IMG/VR virus record: IMGVR_UViG_2703719355_000022
Span: 1 to 38,200 of that record
Direction: 5' to 3' (one strand)
Source of the DNA: a virus
Taxonomy: Duplodnaviria; Heunggongvirae; Uroviricota; Caudoviricetes
Length of the DNA stretch: 38,200 nucleotides
Translations under genes and position numbers: made by a program
The notes under the pieces: model-generated
Told to the model about the DNA's origin: nothing
The model's database searches: none
What the model saw: only the letters and a program-made list of their open reading frames with translations
Shown: piece after piece, positions 14,729 through 24,192 of the stretch
How the letters are laid out: every line of letters starts with the position of its first letter
Numbering within the stretch: the first letter of the stretch is position 1

Positions 14729-14760
14729 TAAAAAAGCCCCACCGATAAAGGCAGGGCTTA
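14729..14760 (-). terminator. rho-independent terminator (family AAGCCCTGCC-loop-GGTGGGGCTTTTT) upstream of the tape measure gene
   Basis: 9-bp stem with two G-T wobbles, 6-nt loop, T-run on minus strand; one of four near-identical copies. Confidence 0.6.
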
Positions 14761-14768
14761 TAATTCAA

Positions 14769-15116
14769 TTAATCTGCGGTCGCCCTTAACTTATTGACTA
14801 ACGCCGGATCAAACATGCTCAACATTGCAGCTTTGCGATCTTCTTCTTTCTTACGCTCGATTTCTTCCAGTTCTTCTTTAGTCTTGAAGATTTTCTCTTC
14901 TTTGATTAACTGGAATTGGCTAGGCTTAATTTTCTTAGCCATTTCTTTGGTCATTCCCTGAGAAGTCATATAAAGGGAATATTGAAGCATAGCGTTTTGC
15001 ATGTCATGAAATGCGGGGGATTGTGGTTCTAAGTAAGTGTCGAAAATATGCAGTGACCAAAAAAGTGTTACTGGCATATTATCCATTTCATCTTTACTCA
15101 ATCCACGCCGCATCAT
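14769..15116 (-). CDS. hypothetical protein, possibly tail assembly chaperone partner (lambda T-like position), 115 aa
   Basis: Lies in the -1 frame relative to the upstream chaperone-like gene, starts 30 nt after its stop, no ribosome-binding motif; Lys/Glu-rich. Confidence 0.35.
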   Translation of the reverse strand: MMRRGLSKDEMDNMPVTLFWSLHIFDTYLEPQSPAFHDMQNAMLQYSLYMTSQGMTKEMAKKIKPSQFQLIKEEKIFKTKEELEEIERKKEEDRKAAMLSMFDPALVNKLRATAD

Positions 15117-15145
15117 CTGGCGGAAGTAGAAAGTTAAGAGCGGGT

Positions 15146-15454
15146 TTACTTTACCGATTCTTCTACCTTACTCGGTTCCGGCATCATAGAAGCCAGAGCA
15201 ACCAGACCGATCAATTGTGCTTTAACAGTTGTGTAAAGGGCTTTAACTTGTTTAATATTAGTGAAAACTGGTTTACCGCTTTCATCTTCGATACATTTCA
15301 GAATAGTACGTTCGTCGCGGTCTTCTTTATTGTTATTCTGAATGTGCTCGTTAAATTCCTGTACGCTCATCGGACGGGCATAAAATTTAAAGCCGTTGAT
15401 TTCCATTGCTTCGCGTTTCGGGGAAAGAGCTTTCATTAAATCGTTGATATTCAT
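15146..15454 (-). CDS. putative tail assembly chaperone (lambda G-like position), 102 aa
   Basis: Small acidic protein immediately upstream of the T-like ORF and tape measure gene; position-based. Confidence 0.4.
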   Translation of the reverse strand: MNINDLMKALSPKREAMEINGFKFYARPMSVQEFNEHIQNNNKEDRDERTILKCIEDESGKPVFTNIKQVKALYTTVKAQLIGLVALASMMPEPSKVEESVK

Positions 15455-15488: not shown

Positions 15489-15995
15489 TTATGTGATCTT
15501 TAAAGTCTGCTTAGTGCCAGTCTTCTTAATGTTGGTAAGGAAAGCAGCCGGAGGATTGCTTAACCAATAGTAATGAAAACCACTTTGCATACTGTTATAA
15601 GGAACAGTGACAGTAGCACCACCCAAATTAACGGTTATATTCCCCGCTCTACCGTTCTGGAGATATACAGCCATAGTAGGAGTACCGCCATTGAATTGAC
15701 CAACGATAACGCCAATCAGACGCCCTACGCCCACGTTTTCGGGGTTCTCCATAGATCCTTTACCGCGCATGTCAGTTACTGGATAGTTTGAAGCAGTCAC
15801 ACCCCAGTTATTACCCAATGAAGTAGACCACGCAGCAGTAGCTACAACCGTATCCATACCACGACCACACATCGCACTCATGTTAGCTGGGCGACTAACC
15901 TTTAATGCGTTCATTGCTGCGCTCATCCATCGTTGACCAGTTACAGAAACAGCAGATGACCCGACCCAGCCAGGCTTATTAACGACATTCGCCAT
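15489..15995 (-). CDS. hypothetical tail-module protein, 168 aa
   Basis: ORF with GGAGTAA ribosome-binding motif directly after a terminator; Gly/Ala/Ser-rich; function unknown. Confidence 0.4.
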   Translation of the reverse strand: MANVVNKPGWVGSSAVSVTGQRWMSAAMNALKVSRPANMSAMCGRGMDTVVATAAWSTSLGNNWGVTASNYPVTDMRGKGSMENPENVGVGRLIGVIVGQFNGGTPTMAVYLQNGRAGNITVNLGGATVTVPYNSMQSGFHYYWLSNPPAAFLTNIKKTGTKQTLKIT

Positions 15996-16009
15996 TTTGA
16001 TTACTCCAA

Positions 16010-16040
16010 TAAAAAAGCCCCACCATTAAGGCAGGGCTTA
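16010..16040 (-). terminator. rho-independent terminator (same family) after the tail tube gene and its extension
   Basis: AAGCCCTGCC-TTAATG-GTGGGGCTTTTTT on minus strand. Confidence 0.65.
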
Positions 16041-16043
16041 TAA

Positions 16044-16163
16044 TTAATCTTTAGCCTTGCGGCTTCGTTTAGCTGTGGCTTTCGCCGTAACTTCTTCTAC
16101 TTCTGGAATCACCACCGCTTCATGTTCCGGCTGTGGTTCCGGTTCGGGAAGTTCTTCGTTAGT
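16044..16163 (-). other. in-frame stop-free extension (39 codons) after the TGA of the tail tube gene; candidate readthrough domain
   Basis: Hand translation after TGA gives TNEELPEPEPQPEHEAVVIPEVEEVTAKATAKRSRKAKD then TAA at 16044-16046; shares 23-nt block with capsid extension. Confidence 0.45.
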
Positions 16164-16637
16164 TCATCCGGCAGTGAAGATTTGCTGTTTCAGCGGAGCA
16201 CCATCCACCGCGAAGGTAAACTCTTTGGTCACAACTTCTTCATCGCCACCGTTCATAGCAACTTTAGAAATGAAGCCGTTGAAAGCGGTGCGAATACCAG
16301 TCTGTTTTGCTGCGTCAACGTAATATTCTACTTTAATCTGAATACGAGTACCGTCTTCGGCAGCTTTGATCAGTTTTTCATGTACCGCATCGCCTGGGAT
16401 GTAGTTAACGGTCAGAGTCAGATCAGGAACGTTCAGCTTCCCTACCAGTTTACGGTTATACTGAGAAGAGAAGGATTTAACTTCTACAGTACCGCGCTCG
16501 ATACCAGTTTCAGGAAAACCAGCACACTCTTTAATTTCTTCGTATGCTTCATCAGCAAGATCGGTGTTAGTGGTATCAGCGTGATAGAACAGACTTACCA
16601 GACCACCAGTAAAAATATCTTTAAATTGTTGAGACAT
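16164..16637 (-). CDS. major tail tube protein candidate, 157 aa
   Basis: AAGGGG ribosome-binding motif; followed by a strong terminator as expected for an abundant structural gene; loose by-eye pattern similarity to the lambda V tube domain; ends in TGA. Confidence 0.45.
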   Translation of the reverse strand: MSQQFKDIFTGGLVSLFYHADTTNTDLADEAYEEIKECAGFPETGIERGTVEVKSFSSQYNRKLVGKLNVPDLTLTVNYIPGDAVHEKLIKAAEDGTRIQIKVEYYVDAAKQTGIRTAFNGFISKVAMNGGDEEVVTKEFTFAVDGAPLKQQIFTAG

Positions 16638-16693: not shown

Positions 16694-19600
16694 TTATTTA
16701 GTTGCTTTGAGTTCGGCAATCTCTTTAGTCAATGCTTCAATCTTAGCTTGATATTTGACGTCCATTTCCTGAATAGCTTTAATAATCAAGGCATTAACAG
16801 CAGAGTTAGAAATAGTCTTAATTGCTTCTGGATTTTCTGGATCTTCGGTGGATTGAATACCTACTGCTTCCGGCAATACTTCTTCCAGATCCTGAGCAAT
16901 AATACCGACTTCGCGTTTAATCACACTACGATCTTTAAGAGACTTAACTTTATCGTATGAGTAGACTTTCAGGGAGTTTACTTTCTCTAAAGCATCATCT
17001 TTTAATTCTTCCAGATTAACTTTCAGACGACGGTCCGAACGAATGTAAACATCGTTAAAGCTACCGTTACGACCTGCGGTAAAGTCACCAGCAGCGTTAA
17101 AGTCAAAGTTAGTATCATGAACATGGAGACGCACAAGAGCGTTACCGATAGTACCGCTAGGAACATGTACACCCATTGCTGCGATATGATATTTACCTTG
17201 ATGGGTTGCTTTCCATACGTTATGAGCGGAATCGGTTGATTGTTGACAGTCGACCTGAATACCAGAAGCACGATCACGCCAGCTAGCCCAACTACCACCA
17301 GCAACGCTACCACGAATAAGACCATTACCGCCACCGGATACAGTGCCCGTTTCAAGGTGAATCATCTTACCGCCGAATTTCCAGACTTCGGTTTGTTTCT
17401 CACCGCGCATACGCATAACGCCAGCATCATCGCAGTACAACAGACCCAATTCTAAGCCATTTGGATCTCTAAACCACAAATGCTTATTGCCACTGCGACG
17501 AAACTCAATATCAGCACCGTTAAGCGTGATATTACCGCCAGTGTGAATTGCTTTAGGTTTAACAGTACCGTTGATGGCAAACTCGATTAATTCAGTACCC
17601 GGACCGCCCGGTCGTTGTGTGTACCAGTGCCAACCGCTTTCGTCCGCACATTCGAATACTTGTTTACGAGCATCAGCACCCCACGCACGGATATTAAAGC
17701 TAGAAGTAGCTGTATTTTTGCCCCACGTTAATTTTCCTTCGGTAGTTAAATCCCCTCGGAAATGAGCAAGCAAACCACCAGATCCGTTACGTTCAGTGGT
17801 AAAGTGAGTTCCGCTAGTGTCCTGGAATTGCAAAACGTTATATCGGTTAGCGTTACTATTCCCCCAATGGTTAATCGTGAAAGAATCCATTGACTGATTC
17901 CCACCAGCAGAGAAAGTAAGCAATCCTTTTTCTAAGAATACGTTATTACTAAAGCGAGCAGCACGGCTATCTCTTTCAAGAATTAATGCACCTTCGTTAC
18001 CATCACCACCTAAAGTAACTTTACCATTTGTCAAATCGTAAATGAATGGTCGGTTTCCGTTCCACCCGCCCAATTTATCATTTTCGGCAGTAGAAAGAAG
18101 ATAAACTTTAGTGCCGTCATTACGCCAGAATGCACCATAATTACCGTAGATCATGCGGTAGGCGTCGCTATTCATTGAGATGAATTGAGCGTTAGTATAA
18201 ACTCGTTTTGTTCTACCAGTTGCAAGTTCGATCTGTCCGTCGATGTGGTGACGAATAGAAGTACCACCTACATCACTATACCATTCAAAAACGTTAGTAT
18301 CAGCATTACCATAACCGATCCACCCTTGACGGGTAATATCTCCAGTCCGATTATCTTGAAACGCAATATGGTTGGATTGACCAGCAGGACGCCGCAAGGT
18401 AATAACATTACTACCGCCACCTAACATCATTCGACCAGAAAGAATATTACCTTTATGAGTCCCAGCAATAGAGCTACTAGATTCAACGGTTAGAATCTCC
18501 TGAGCATCAGTGCTACCAGTAGCCAGACGATAACTGGAACCTTGAACCGTCTCATGCCAGATCATTTCATTATAGTTACTGCGGAATTTACGAATATATT
18601 TCCGACCAGTACCTTTATCATTACTTAGATGAACAATGTCATAGCTGTTTTGTGTGTTGTCGTCAAAACTCAACACACCACGTTTATTTTCTGTGTTAAA
18701 AAGAGTTACGTTGCGACCACCGATAACACCAACGGAAGGTTTAATTAACGTGGCTTCCGGCGTATCATAAACCGTCAAACTTACATAAACAGATTTCCCA
18801 TATTCGACAATAACGTTATCGGTATAACGCTGATATTTCACGTAGATATCATAGTTATCACCGGAAGTATTGACAGCAAATACCTCAAAATCTTTGTTTG
18901 TATTTCTACGGTATGCAATTACGTTAAGACCTTTAGGTCTATCGTTACCACTACGGAGAAGAATTTCTACTACATCAACTTGGTCATATGCCGTAACGTT
19001 GTAACCATTACCACCATGAATACGGAAAAACACACTACGCCCGTTTTGTGGAATTGTTGCGGTTGCCAATTTGAAATATGCAGATACGTTTTCGCTAGAA
19101 TTGGGAACAGACATAACGACGTTTTTAACAAACATCTTATCAACTTCGGCTTTGGTGTATGCACCAATCTCGCCAGGAGTCGGCTTATCACCTTCGTGAT
19201 ACATTTTATAGCTAAAGTCCTTCTGTCCTTCTCTATCAAAACCATAGGTTTCAACACGAGATCCACCAGACGCATAACGGAAAGTAAATCCGCGACCGTG
19301 CGCTTTACCGGCAGAATGAGGAACATTAAGAGTTAGATCTAAAAGACCATCTTGTTCATTAGTTCGGAAAGCACCAAAGTAATTAAGATCTCGTGATGTC
19401 TGGTCTTCCAGATAGTTAGCTGTCTTGCTTAACAGATACCCACCATGCTTAGTATTGGTATTCTTCTTGATGTAAAGAGCATCGTTGCTACCTTCAATAC
19501 CATCAATTCGACGGTTAGCGGCTGCAATCGCTGAATCAGTAGCTGATTTATTCTGGTCAACCTTGTTGTTAATGGCGGTGTGGTTGCTATTAACAGTGTT

Positions 19601-20305
19601 GGTTAAGTTGGTGATCTTCGTATCAGCATCGACCTTGTTATCGGATACAACCTTTTCGATTGCGGTCTTATTCGCCGCTACTGTCCCACTAAGGTTATTA
19701 ATTTTTGTGTCCGCGTCTTTCTTATTGGAAGTCACTGTAGCGGTTAAATTGCTAACGTTGGTGTTAGTGGTATTGACCTTGTTGTTTATTGCGGTATTGT
19801 TGTCCGCGACCGTCTTTGATAAAGCTGCGTGTTTACTATCGGCATCAGATTTATTCTGGTCGACCTTTGTGTTAATAGCGGTATGGTTGCTACTTACGGT
19901 CCCACTAAGATTATTAATTTTGGTGTCAGCATCGACCTTGTTATCACTAACCACTTTGGTCAAATTGCTAACGTTGGTATTAGTAGCATCAATGCGCTTA
20001 TTGGTCGCTGTATCTTTCGTGGTAATAGTCTGATTCAGTTCAGCTTTAGCACTAGCCAGATTATTAGCGGCCTCTTGTTTGTTGGAAGCAATAACACGGT
20101 CAGTGCTAGTTTTGTTATTGTCTACTTTCGTGTTTAAAGCATTATGACTTTCTGGGGAAACGCTGATTTGAACTACTGCGTTATTTTTGTCTTTGGTGTA
20201 AATTACATGGTCTGCCATCTGAATAGCGATTTCACCGACCTGTAATTGTTCTGGCGTTGGCTTTTTACCAGCCGTCTGTGTGCGTTTAAATTGGATAGAC
20301 TCCAT
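16694..20305 (-). CDS. tail fiber protein with C-terminal intramolecular chaperone (peptidase S74-like) domain, 1203 aa
   Basis: N-terminal tandem ~44-aa repeats (NTNVSNLT...DADTKINNLSGTV...); C-terminal segment DRRLKVNLEEL...VGIIAQDLEEVLPEAV resembles auto-cleaving chaperone domains of phage fibers. Confidence 0.8.
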   Translation of the reverse strand: MESIQFKRTQTAGKKPTPEQLQVGEIAIQMADHVIYTKDKNNAVVQISVSPESHNALNTKVDNNKTSTDRVIASNKQEAANNLASAKAELNQTITTKDTATNKRIDATNTNVSNLTKVVSDNKVDADTKINNLSGTVSSNHTAINTKVDQNKSDADSKHAALSKTVADNNTAINNKVNTTNTNVSNLTATVTSNKKDADTKINNLSGTVAANKTAIEKVVSDNKVDADTKITNLTNTVNSNHTAINNKVDQNKSATDSAIAAANRRIDGIEGSNDALYIKKNTNTKHGGYLLSKTANYLEDQTSRDLNYFGAFRTNEQDGLLDLTLNVPHSAGKAHGRGFTFRYASGGSRVETYGFDREGQKDFSYKMYHEGDKPTPGEIGAYTKAEVDKMFVKNVVMSVPNSSENVSAYFKLATATIPQNGRSVFFRIHGGNGYNVTAYDQVDVVEILLRSGNDRPKGLNVIAYRRNTNKDFEVFAVNTSGDNYDIYVKYQRYTDNVIVEYGKSVYVSLTVYDTPEATLIKPSVGVIGGRNVTLFNTENKRGVLSFDDNTQNSYDIVHLSNDKGTGRKYIRKFRSNYNEMIWHETVQGSSYRLATGSTDAQEILTVESSSSIAGTHKGNILSGRMMLGGGSNVITLRRPAGQSNHIAFQDNRTGDITRQGWIGYGNADTNVFEWYSDVGGTSIRHHIDGQIELATGRTKRVYTNAQFISMNSDAYRMIYGNYGAFWRNDGTKVYLLSTAENDKLGGWNGNRPFIYDLTNGKVTLGGDGNEGALILERDSRAARFSNNVFLEKGLLTFSAGGNQSMDSFTINHWGNSNANRYNVLQFQDTSGTHFTTERNGSGGLLAHFRGDLTTEGKLTWGKNTATSSFNIRAWGADARKQVFECADESGWHWYTQRPGGPGTELIEFAINGTVKPKAIHTGGNITLNGADIEFRRSGNKHLWFRDPNGLELGLLYCDDAGVMRMRGEKQTEVWKFGGKMIHLETGTVSGGGNGLIRGSVAGGSWASWRDRASGIQVDCQQSTDSAHNVWKATHQGKYHIAAMGVHVPSGTIGNALVRLHVHDTNFDFNAAGDFTAGRNGSFNDVYIRSDRRLKVNLEELKDDALEKVNSLKVYSYDKVKSLKDRSVIKREVGIIAQDLEEVLPEAVGIQSTEDPENPEAIKTISNSAVNALIIKAIQEMDVKYQAKIEALTKEIAELKATK

Positions 20306-21949: not shown

Positions 21950-21980
21950 CAAAAAAGCCCCACCGATAAAGGCAGGGCTA
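21950..21980 (-). terminator. rho-independent terminator (same family) after the capsid gene and its extension
   Basis: TAGCCCTGCC-TTTATC-GGTGGGGCTTTTTT on minus strand. Confidence 0.65.
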
Positions 21981-21984
21981 ATTA

Positions 21985-22119
21985 TTATTTTGCTTTCGGT
22001 GGACGACCCACCTTTTTAGCTGTGGCTTTCGCCTTAACCGTCTGGGATTCTTCTTCCTGTGGTGGAATCGGATTTTCTTCCCCCAAATCGGGGGAAGGTT
22101 CAGAAGGTTCTACGTTATT
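21985..22119 (-). other. in-frame stop-free extension (44 codons) after the TGA of the capsid gene; candidate readthrough domain
   Basis: Hand translation after TGA gives NNVEPSEPSPDLGEENPIPPQEEESQTVKAKATAKKVGRPPKAK then TAA at 21985-21987. Confidence 0.45.
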
Positions 22120-24192
22120 TCAATCGCTTTTTTTCTGGACTACGGTCAGTGCGCTATGGTCCATAACAGCCCAATCCAAATCAGCCCATACACGGAAGTA
22201 CAGGTTGCCAGCCGCGCGACCTGTGGTGTCGTCGCAATCCAGTTCCAGCGATCCGAAGTCCGCAATTGCCAGAGAGCTAAAGTCACCAAACAGCATCGTA
22301 TCCTGAGCAATTACACCAGAGCCATAGATCGGACGGTTAACCAGTTTATCACCTTCTACCAGGAAGCCCGGAACGTTAGCGGCTTTCAGTTGCGCTGAAA
22401 GTTCAGCTTTAATAACACCACGAGTAGCAAATGCCAGATCAGATTCGTTAAAACCTTTGTCTGTTTGTTCAGCAACCAGTTTCAGGAACTCGGCATAGGT
22501 CCAATCAATCTGTTTAACTTTGCCAGCGTCGGTCAGGATCTTAGTCAGACCATCACGAGCGTTAGTGTTAGCAGCATTGGACAGGATCGCTTTTTCCAGA
22601 GCGATAGCACTGTGTTTCAGCATGTGCTCACCAACGATAGCACCGATGTTAGGCAGAGTGATAGCAGCCTGACGAGTTACAGGAACAATTCCATTGAATG
22701 TCTTAAGAGTCATCGGCTGTGCTGCAAACTTGATAGTACCTTCACCAGCGGATTGACCTTCTGCAACAAAACCGAAGTTTTCCAGATTGCTGGAAGTCAG
22801 AGACGGCAGAGATACCGGACCAGTTGCGTTAATGGTACGCACGCCCAATTTGCCCAGAATAGAACGTTCCATGATCATATCAACGAAGCAATCATGGCGG
22901 ATTTCTTCACCAACTACAGGTTTCAGAGATTCCATGTTCTGGCTAGCACGCAGAGCGGACGCCGGAATGAATACGGAGTTAGAACGCTGTGCACGACCAC
23001 GCGCTGCGGCTTTACGTGCTTCTTCCTGAGAATATTCAGCTTCTGCGCCAGTCAGTGCTTTACCCTCTGCGATTGCACGTACAGCTTTATTAAGATCGAA
23101 ACGAGATTCCAGAGTTTTAATGGTATCGGTCATGGTAATTTTTCCTTTAACAAAAGTTTTAGATTCGGTAGTATTTAGTGCGCGTGCTTTTTCTTTAAAA
23201 TTTTCAATAGTCACGGCACTATCTTTAATTGCGGCTTCAATTACGTCTTCGGAGATATTTAGATGTTTTCCGATAGCACGAATTTCGGCGGTATCTTCGC
23301 GAGAACGTTCAAACGGTTTTTCTTCGTCTTCAATCTTTTCTTCTTCGACTGGTTCGGATGTATTTTCCGTTTCGTCGTTCTCGTCTGTATCTTTATTTAG
23401 TTCTTCTGTTTCTTCCGGTTTAATTTCTTCTTCCGGTTCATCTTCGGAACGTTCTTCTTTTTCTTCTGGCGTTACTTCTTGCGGGTTTTCCACATCTTCG
23501 CCACTGTCAGCACTATTTCCAGAATCGGAATCAATTTCTTCATTTTCCTGTTCCTCTTTCTCTTCTTCGGAACGTTTTTCTTCATCTTCCGGTTTAATTT
23601 CTTCTACCGGAGTGTCTTTAATTTCGTCTTCCACTTGTTCACCCTCCAAAACAATCATTTCGTTGTCTGTATTTAGAGAGCGTCCAACACCCGCGTTAAA
23701 TGGATCTGCGGCACACGTTACAAGACTGCATTCGAAAGGTTGCCAGCGTGTAACGTAATAGATCCCTTTGTTAAAATCGGCTTTGCCATCAAGAACGTTA
23801 TAACCGACGCTAACTTGTGAAAGTGTTCCCTCTTTTACCTTCTCAAAGCATTCATTAGCCAGTTGGCCTACTTTGGAGAATTGGACAAGGCAACGACCTA
23901 CACGGTCTTCGTCAATACGAGCGGAGCCAGGAACAATCTTGCCGATATGAAGGTCCAGATTGTGATTAAACAGAAGACTTGCGTTAGTCTCGTTTAAAAC
24001 GGATAGATCAACCGCTGATTCATCGTGTACGAGAATCTCTTTTAATTCGACTTGCTCGCCGTCCTGATTCATGTAATAACGTGTATAAGGAGCCTCGCTT
24101 GAGAAAGCCAATTCAATAATTCGTTCGTCTTTTTCTTCGATAAAATCAGGGGTATCTACCGCAACACTACGACGGAATTGTTTTGTTGTCAT
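22120..24192 (-). CDS. prohead protease / acidic scaffold-like linker / HK97-fold major capsid protein fusion, 690 aa
   Basis: N-terminal ~170 aa resemble HK97-type prohead protease (LSQVSVGYNVLDG...WQPFECSLVTCAADPFNA); ~150-aa Glu-rich linker with internal repeats; C-terminal ~350 aa with HK97-fold capsid-like motifs (GNLYFRVWADLDWAV); ends in TGA. Confidence 0.8.
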   Translation of the reverse strand: MTTKQFRRSVAVDTPDFIEEKDERIIELAFSSEAPYTRYYMNQDGEQVELKEILVHDESAVDLSVLNETNASLLFNHNLDLHIGKIVPGSARIDEDRVGRCLVQFSKVGQLANECFEKVKEGTLSQVSVGYNVLDGKADFNKGIYYVTRWQPFECSLVTCAADPFNAGVGRSLNTDNEMIVLEGEQVEDEIKDTPVEEIKPEDEEKRSEEEKEEQENEEIDSDSGNSADSGEDVENPQEVTPEEKEERSEDEPEEEIKPEETEELNKDTDENDETENTSEPVEEEKIEDEEKPFERSREDTAEIRAIGKHLNISEDVIEAAIKDSAVTIENFKEKARALNTTESKTFVKGKITMTDTIKTLESRFDLNKAVRAIAEGKALTGAEAEYSQEEARKAAARGRAQRSNSVFIPASALRASQNMESLKPVVGEEIRHDCFVDMIMERSILGKLGVRTINATGPVSLPSLTSSNLENFGFVAEGQSAGEGTIKFAAQPMTLKTFNGIVPVTRQAAITLPNIGAIVGEHMLKHSAIALEKAILSNAANTNARDGLTKILTDAGKVKQIDWTYAEFLKLVAEQTDKGFNESDLAFATRGVIKAELSAQLKAANVPGFLVEGDKLVNRPIYGSGVIAQDTMLFGDFSSLAIADFGSLELDCDDTTGRAAGNLYFRVWADLDWAVMDHSALTVVQKKSD

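Follow-up and report, generated by a model that had tools for sequence, protein, structure and literature searches.

Candidate UGA readthrough extensions behind the capsid and tail tube genes of an Escherichia coli prophage family

Two structural genes and the open frames behind their stop codons

We analysed a 38,200-nucleotide (nt) stretch of viral DNA (the window; positions 1 to 38,200 of IMG/VR record IMGVR_UViG_2703719355_000022, Caudoviricetes), which is a siphovirus-type prophage of Escherichia coli, and focused on the 3' ends of its tail tube and major capsid genes. Both genes end in TGA followed by A, and behind this stop the reading frame stays open, for 39 codons in the tube gene and 44 in the capsid gene, up to a TAA that is followed by an intrinsic terminator (Table 1); we refer to this unit as the cassette. 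A first-pass annotation of the sequence had described the layout at the tube gene, and its coordinates and translation agree with ours. Capsid and tube are the two most abundant virion proteins, and their genes the most highly expressed.

The 157-amino-acid (aa) tube protein scored 28.4 bits against PF16460 (Phage_TTP_11), exactly at the gathering score, and the best PDB matches of its AlphaFold2 (AF2) model in a Foldseek search were the lambda gpV tube domain structures 8k36 and 7t2e (E 3e-7, probability 1.0). By profile and by predicted fold, the protein is thus assigned a lambda-like tail tube fold (Phage_TTP_11/gpV N-domain), and the Prokaryotic Genome Annotation Pipeline (PGAP) labels it 'phage tail tube protein' in E. 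coli MEI003. The predicted local distance difference test (pLDDT) stays below 50 across the 39-aa low-complexity extension, which is predicted to be disordered and not a folded immunoglobulin-like (Ig-like) or fibronectin type III (FN3) domain. Both extensions start with (T/N)-N-(E/V)-E, continue as Glu/Pro-rich sequence into V-(T/K)-AKATAK and finish in a Lys/Arg-rich end, so that the translations bear out the earlier description of a Pro/Glu-rich segment followed by a basic one.

A block of 24 nt, a little longer than the 23 nt first reported, recurs in both extensions with a single mismatch. Its reading frame is the same behind the two genes (V-T/K-A-K-A-T-A-K, the AKATAK of the annotation); a match of equal quality arose in 0 of 100 shuffles. 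By sequence, the tube and capsid cassettes are paralogous, having in common the start TGA-A(C/A)T-AAC-G.A-GAA, the 24-nt block and the terminator. The duplicated cassette, which the annotation had set beside translation as an alternative, therefore holds as far as paralogy is concerned. As an internal control, the window also contains a third terminator from the family seen behind both cassettes, located between the genes for the T-like chaperone and the tape measure.

Table 1. Coordinates of the tube and capsid cassettes and related features in the window
Feature	Position	Strand	Basis or remark
Tail tube protein gene, 157 aa	16164..16637	-	Pfam Phage_TTP_11; ends GGA TGA A, TGA at 16166-16164
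Tube extension, 39 in-frame codons (TNEELPEPEPQPEHEAVVIPEVEEVTAKATAKRSRKAKD)	16047..16163	-	Translation; Glu/Pro-rich spacer, TAKATAK, basic tail RSRKAKD
TAA closing tube extension	16044..16046	-	Sequence
Shared 24-nt block GTTACGGCGAAAGCCACAGCTAAA (V-T-A-K-A-T-A-K)	16068..16091	-	Contains GGC-GAAA-GCC mini-hairpin
Intrinsic terminator past tube extension (AAGCCCTGCC-TTAAT-GGTGGGGCTT + T-run)	16009..16039	-	Hairpin 16039-16015
Prohead protease/acidic scaffold/HK97-type major capsid fusion, 690 aa	22120..24192	-	Pfam Peptidase_S78 + Phage_capsid; translation; ends GAT TGA A, TGA at 22122-22120
Capsid extension, 44 in-frame codons (NNVEPSEPSPDLGEENPIPPQEEESQTV-KAKATAKKVGRPPKAK)	21988..22119	-	Translation
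TAA TAA double stop closing capsid extension	21982..21987	-	Sequence
Second copy of shared 24-nt block (GTTAAGGCGAAAGCCACAGCTAAA)	22015..22038	-	One mismatch vs tube copy
Intrinsic terminator past capsid extension, tube-terminator family	21950..21979	-	Hairpin 21979-21956
RNA hairpin CUUCCCCC-GAUUU-GGGGGAAG in capsid extension	22077..22097	-	RNA folding; 22 nt past UGA
RNA hairpin GGUGG-GUCGU-CCACC in basic-tail codons (VGRPP)	21998..22012	-	Compensatory GGCGG/CCGCC in relatives L131, L038
Third same-family terminator (AAGCCCTGCC...GGTGGGGCTT + T-run)	14734..14759	-	Directly after TAA, no extension; internal control

Conservation of the cassettes among enterobacterial prophages

The comparative sample comprised about 40 distinct cassette sequences from prophages of E. 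coli, Salmonella and Providencia. For the tube gene, 23 IMG/VR relatives (86-100% aa identity), one ENA contig and the window made up 25 loci; the capsid set likewise reached 25, with 17 IMG/VR loci, 7 further contigs and the window, and extra matches came from a pattern scan. The tube stop is TGA followed by ACT in 25/25 loci, and the extension behind it is open for 36, 39 or 41 codons in 15 distinct nucleotide versions, each of which carries 2-5 stops in frames +1 and +2. The capsid stop is TGA-A at all 25 loci and at every genuine cassette of the pattern scan, Salmonella and Providencia included, so that UGA with A at +4 is found in every cassette across three genera. At these loci and in the pattern-scan matches, capsid extensions run for 28, 33, 42, 43, 44 or 45 codons, and about 25 distinct capsid variants are known overall (25-45 codons, three genera). 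Taken together, not one of the roughly 40 distinct cassettes has a frame-0 stop within the extension; the other two frames carry 1-6 stops each. The length classes (36/39/41 codons for tube; 25/28/33/42/43/44/45 for capsid) require at least 9 insertion or deletion events, all of them multiples of 3, for which (1/3)^9 gives about 5e-5; the loops of the adjacent downstream terminators vary in length by 1 and 2 nt.

The Glu/Pro-rich-then-basic character of the peptide also survives replacement of the nucleotides that encode it, as between TNEELPEPEPQPEHEAVV and TFEEQPQPIQDEPT or between the long and short capsid types, and one tube version in which a segment is largely replaced (TFEEQPQPIQDEPTVIPEIEVV...) keeps its acidic/Pro character. 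The capsid cassette follows capsid C-termini of at least three kinds (...VLHISAE, ...VLKMGEE and ...VVQKKSD). Its Salmonella form (TGA-AATAAC, NNEELPEEIPVATAKATKRGRKPKA) and its Providencia form (TGA-ACTAAC, TNEELPEEEPLPVATEKSTKRRKSK), both of 25 codons, are diverged in sequence and are followed by unrelated terminators. Together with the third terminator of the window, which has no extension, these cassettes indicate that the open reading frame (ORF) is not merely the upstream half of a terminator repeat.

Among 5426 E. coli genomes, 22 carry the tube cassette and 54 the capsid cassette. In most of the 54 capsid matches, alignment to the window begins no earlier than about 5 nt ahead of the TGA, which makes the capsid stop codon a mosaic junction and the cassette a module that travels as such. 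In most of these prophages the extension, the terminator and the next gene are 87-95% identical to the window, and the capsid body is too diverged to align (breakpoint at window 22120-22126).

The annotation had estimated the chance that two unrelated spacers are both open at about 1 in several hundred. That figure is matched at best: with the base composition of the window we obtained about 0.005, and shuffling each extension gave the weaker 0.18 x 0.11, or about 0.02. We hold the feature to be real because of the comparative evidence, not because of this single-sequence statistic. Its suggestion that the TGA is read through is supported, at the level of sequence comparison, by the invariant TGA-A, the approximately 40 open frames, the in-frame length changes and the preserved peptide character.

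Tube genes that lack an extension all end in TAA directly at the terminator; they come from Hafnia, Salmonella, Providencia, Edwardsiella, phage DCP80 and those E. coli lineages with 57-74% identity. A tube-alignment scan of the genome collection yielded a single distant locus, in Buttiauxella (44% identity), which has no extension. Extension-less capsid genes of Hafnia, Salmonella L122 and DCP80 likewise use TAA; the sole exception is the Edwardsiella capsid gene, with TGA-T and only 9 in-frame codons. Past this TGA-T, the Edwardsiella tarda prophage (L124 2789-2932) holds out-of-frame remnants resembling the shared block (GCGGTCGAAAGCC), and its capsid cassette appears decayed. In the window itself, 25 of 29 likely genes stop at TAA, and TGA-A occurs only at the tube and capsid genes; the MEI003 element has 32 TAA, 5 TGA and 1 TAG.

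Several relatives encode a basic tail directly. In the Edwardsiella prophage whose capsid cassette appears decayed, the tube gene continues in sense codons from ...VFTP into DAPLATYHMNVIPEAVAAKEK (...NVIPEAVAAKEK) with no stop, and the BLASTP alignment of this tail with the E. coli sequence runs through the position of the stop codon as far as ...HEAVVIPE in the extension. Salmonella and Providencia tube proteins end in ...GSRK, ...GLRK, ...SARK, ...SARSK or ...PSRAK, and the capsid proteins of Salmonella L122 and Hafnia in ...EASKAK and ...EAKSKD. These directly encoded tails suggest that a basic C-terminal tip on tube and capsid proteins is a family trait, of which the E. coli lineage seems to put a longer version behind a leaky stop. 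In one Hafnia prophage (L063 4650-4690), the short basic tail of the capsid protein is naturally truncated: five codons from the C-terminus, TAA stands in place of the GAA of its relatives L064/L065 (PAGV*AKSKD vs PAGAEAKSKD).

Proposed readthrough and its alternatives

We propose, with a probability of roughly 0.6, that tRNA-Trp reads through the UGA and so gives rise to minor capsid and tube subunits with a C-terminal extension, the basic tip of which is displayed on the virion surface. On this view, the cassette opens with UGA and an A at +4; its 25-45 in-frame codons would then specify a disordered Glu/Pro-rich spacer, (T/K)AKATAK and a Lys/Arg-rich tip, and a strong TAA closes the frame right against the intrinsic terminator. 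Most ribosomes would terminate at the UGA and yield the normal subunit, and a few percent would insert Trp through the near-cognate tRNA-Trp and read on, giving the predicted stop-spanning peptides ...QQIFTAG-W-TNEELPEPEPQPEHEAVVIPEVEEVTAK (tube) and ...SD-W-NNVEPSEPSPDLGEENPIPPQEEESQTVK (capsid). By our estimate, roughly 10 of the minor extended subunits would co-assemble into each T=7 head and about 5 into each tail. Each would extend a flexible arm, roughly 10 nm long and basic at its tip, outwards from the particle surface; on the tube, the arm would sit where lambda gpV carries its Ig-like domain. A likely role would be weak electrostatic binding to polyanionic surfaces such as lipopolysaccharide (LPS), capsule, mucus or DNA. 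We infer the occurrence and level of readthrough, the incorporation into virions, the surface exposure and what the tip would bind.

Some of these steps have precedent. A at +4 weakens UGA termination, the C-terminus of lambda gpV carries an external Ig-like domain, and the C-termini of HK97-fold capsid proteins are external in T7 10B, phi29 and encapsulins. UGA readthrough via tRNA-Trp in E. coli K-12 amounts to about 2% at 37 °C and 4% at 25 °C and depends on cyclic AMP (cAMP) and growth state (PMC10570021). The in-frame layout and the invariant UGA-A, with no tRNA gene, selenocysteine insertion sequence (SECIS) or alternative start, point to ordinary near-cognate decoding of UGA by tRNA-Trp. 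An Rfam search for a SECIS or a known RNA family returned nothing even at E <= 10 besides terminator-like noise. Independent initiation inside the extension was rejected, as no in-frame ATG, GTG or TTG with a Shine-Dalgarno sequence is conserved and the TTG of the short E. coli type is CTA in Salmonella. Frameshifting was rejected as well: the conserved extension lies in frame 0 directly after the stop, with the other frames closed, which excludes the frameshift family (PSA/A118, T7 10B, SPP1 gp17.1*). An AT-hook reading of KKVGRPPKAK was also set aside, since the translated tails KKVGRPPKAK, KRGRKAKN, KKQRKTKE and KRRKSK keep only basic character and not the R-G-R-P core.

A number of observations weigh against this proposal. 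The ratio of nonsynonymous to synonymous substitution rates (dN/dS) is 0.42 in the tube and 0.74 in the capsid extension, compared with 0.16 and 0.42 in the respective gene bodies, and variable sites in the extensions show no third-position excess. Stop-creating substitutions are absent, but with P of about 0.25 and 0.04 this is of modest significance alone; overall, these substitution-based coding tests (dN/dS, codon-position bias, stop avoidance) are weakly informative. No relative with a sense codon at the TGA was present in the databases searched, and a query of capsid tail plus extension found no match among 5.8 billion protein clusters. The tube cassette is restricted to one sublineage and many relatives lack it, from which it follows that it is dispensable. 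Natural E. coli release factor 2 (RF2) is more efficient than K-12 RF2, so readthrough in the real host could be below 2%. Part of the conservation acts at the RNA level, given that not even synonymous sites vary in the shared block and that several cassette hairpins carry compensatory changes.

In the same 5.8 billion clusters, the tube sequence joined through W to its extension had a single full-length match, P0001, which was discarded as a gene-caller artefact, the underlying DNA having TGA. This 198-aa 'fusion' (ENA contig k141_243218, L051) has the tube TGA translated as Trp; a caller using a TGA=Trp code had scored the extension as coding.

The RNA of the cassettes is itself structured in part. 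The capsid extension folds better than its shuffles (z = -3.9 to -5.4); short-type capsid cassettes have an 11-bp hairpin 10 nt past the UGA with 3 covarying pairs, and the long type has a hairpin at +22. The 11-bp hairpin, the shared-block mini-hairpin and the GGUGG/CCACC hairpin each show at least one compensatory change between relatives. The tube extension has no significant structure (z = -1.5) and no readthrough-type 3' hairpin. Cassette hairpins could stimulate readthrough or stabilise the 3' end of the mRNA. Small hairpins lie on the minus strand of the window at 22077-22097, 22024-22033, 21998-22012 and 16077-16085, and also in relatives L047/L048/L126/L127/L131; two of the mini-hairpins have GNRA loops, GGC-GAAA-GCC in the shared block and AGCC-GCAA-GGCU in the tube tail.

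These structures would also fit a duplicated 3' untranslated region (UTR) module whose hairpins and terminator stabilise or process the two most abundant late mRNAs, with an open frame that is incidental and untranslated. The paralogy of the cassettes, terminator included, the folding of the capsid extension, the compensatory changes in three hairpins, the synonymous invariance of the shared block and dN/dS near 0.4-0.7 all agree with such a module. We nevertheless consider it unlikely, as it gives no reason why at least 9 length changes should be multiples of 3 while neighbouring loops shift by 1-2 nt, and it leaves unexplained the stop-free frame 0 beside closed other frames, the invariant TGA-A where relatives have TAA, the acidic/Pro-then-basic character across non-homologous segments and the basic tails that relatives encode directly; the tube extension, moreover, is not significantly structured. 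More doubtful still is a readthrough that acts only in cis, in which ribosomes that translate as far as the base of the terminator affect mRNA decay or the action of the terminator or of Rho, thereby adjusting the expression of downstream genes, the peptide being functionless. The TAA of each extension lies 5-9 nt before the terminator stem, close enough for a ribosome stopping there to mask the 5' arm; the relaxed dN/dS agrees with selection that keeps the frame open but ignores its sequence, and UGA readthrough varies with host physiology. Against this stand the peptide composition kept across genera and replaced segments and the short basic tails that relatives place directly on the proteins with a TAA stop. 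The ordinary stop of extension-less relatives is, besides, equally near the terminator, so no 40-codon spacer is needed for a cis effect.

A relic, in which a nonsense mutation cut off an ancestral longer C-terminal tail whose remainder has yet to decay, seems very improbable. Edwardsiella speaks for it, with a homologous tube tail encoded without a stop and a capsid cassette that looks decayed (TGA-T, 9 codons, remnants of the block), but the same mutation would need to have been fixed as TGA-A in two genes and three genera, through some 40 diverged sequences with many in-frame length changes and no stops, and the G-to-A change to the preferred TAA is never seen. Specific decoding of the UGA, as selenocysteine, by a phage suppressor tRNA or under an altered code, is effectively refuted: the one metagenome contig for which a gene caller picked the TGA=Trp code favours it, but the window has no tRNA gene, the host E. 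coli uses the standard code, and other phage genes end in TGA with no downstream ORF. It shares the small residue of probability with explanations not considered.

Beyond readthrough of the two genes as such, we tentatively suggest a mobile 'leaky-stop display cassette', consisting of a weak UGA-A, a rigid Glu/Pro spacer, a basic ligand tip, a strong stop and a terminator, which may have spread by recombination between the capsid and tube genes of an enterobacterial prophage family and would put a few basic whiskers per virion on head and tail. Their occupancy would be set by host UGA readthrough (temperature, cAMP, growth state). If this is true, virions from different host states would differ in surface properties, and virion surface composition would be linked to host translational fidelity. 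Readthrough here would also expose a class of coding sequence left unannotated by gene callers and PGAP. The proposal is directly testable because complete E. coli genomes carry the prophage, with the 22 tube and 54 capsid cassettes counted above.

Prophage context and comparison with known systems

Across the tube region, the window and the chromosome of E. coli MEI003 (NZ_CP071263, prophage near 229-259 kb) agree at 99.9% identity; in MEI003, the element is flanked by an LprI-family gene and hicB/ydcR and has a serine recombinase on board. The minus-strand structural genes run in the order terminase, portal, the 690-aa protease/acidic-scaffold/HK97-capsid fusion and three small head-completion genes, followed by a 1203-aa S74-chaperone tail fibre, the 157-aa tube gene, a gp38-type adhesin, G/T chaperones, tape measure and tip genes. 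Within the fusion, residues of about 180-300 (window 23300-23650) form an extremely acidic low-complexity linker of E/D runs with K/P between the S78 protease and HK97 capsid domains, presumably a built-in scaffold that is cut away on maturation. The gene order is unusual in that the tube gene and its cassette are flanked upstream by the T4-like long fibre (16694-20305, minus, S74 chaperone C-terminus) and, immediately downstream, by the gp38-type adhesin (15489-15995, minus; Gp38_N, E 2e-15); relatives without the tube cassette have other small genes at the gp38 position. Of the two minus-strand tail assembly chaperone genes (15454..15146 and 15116..14769), the downstream one is read in the -1 frame, which is already open shortly before the upstream gene ends (window 15116-15170); GUA_AAG_UAA, at the stop of the upstream gene, might act as the -1 slip site that would yield a G-T fusion.

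GenBank holds no close isolated phage, with no match at the DNA level. The nearest phage by protein is DCP80, at 44% aa identity for the tube and 31% for the capsid, and both of its genes lack an extension. DCP80 (PQ671644) is classed in Straboviridae/Tevenvirinae, yet has a lambda-type tube gene and a protease-capsid fusion homologous to those of the window prophage; nearly all of its genes are annotated as hypothetical.

To our knowledge, recoding that yields minor extended virion subunits in tailed phages is by frameshifting only, and readthrough serves this purpose only in the single-stranded RNA (ssRNA) phage Qβ. A limited literature search, in which absence is not proof, turned up no tailed double-stranded DNA (dsDNA) phage for whose capsid or tail proteins stop-codon readthrough had been described. 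If the proposal is true, the prophage would have the first natural structural protein of this kind in a tailed dsDNA phage, and dsDNA phages a new recoding route, used on both head and tail of E. coli prophages.

The closest mechanism is that of Qβ A1, in which the coat-protein UGA is read by tRNA-Trp at about 1/15, giving about 12 co-assembled copies per particle, and the extension begins with a Pro-rich polyproline-II helix (PMC8067240). The E. coli host, the route via UGA and tRNA-Trp proposed for the prophage, and the Pro-rich start are alike. Qβ, however, is an ssRNA phage with an unrelated coat fold, and its A1 extension of about 196 aa has a folded domain and is essential, whereas the prophage is a tailed dsDNA element with disordered extensions of 25-45 aa on two structural genes, dispensable in many relatives.

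The closest architecture is that of Listeria phages PSA, A118 and A500, whose capsid (Cps) and tail shaft (Tsh) genes each yield a longer second product by frameshift (PMC5009743). These are temperate siphoviruses with recoding at the 3' end of capsid and tail genes, an arrangement that the gene architecture of the prophage would parallel. They use a +1 or -1 frameshift (e.g. CCC_UGA), whereas the prophage extension lies in frame 0 behind a stop, and the two extensions of the prophage, unlike theirs, are paralogous copies of one cassette.

T7/T3 10A/10B, SPP1 gp17.1* and the frameshift-added Ig-like domains of Lactobacillus phage A2 and others are likewise minor C-terminally extended external subunits made at set ratios; T7 10B display and SPP1 gp17.1* place minor extended capsid and tube subunits on the virion exterior. 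They arise by frameshift and are mostly folded Ig/FN3 domains, whereas the prophage would use readthrough to add a low-complexity acidic spacer and a basic tip. Lambda gpV shares the tube fold and the C-terminal attachment point on the tail exterior, but its Ig-like domain is constitutive and folded. Engineered gpV display uses a suppressible stop and a linker to obtain partial occupancy; that arrangement is man-made, and the prophage cassette would be its natural counterpart, a natural analogue of suppressible-stop phage display.

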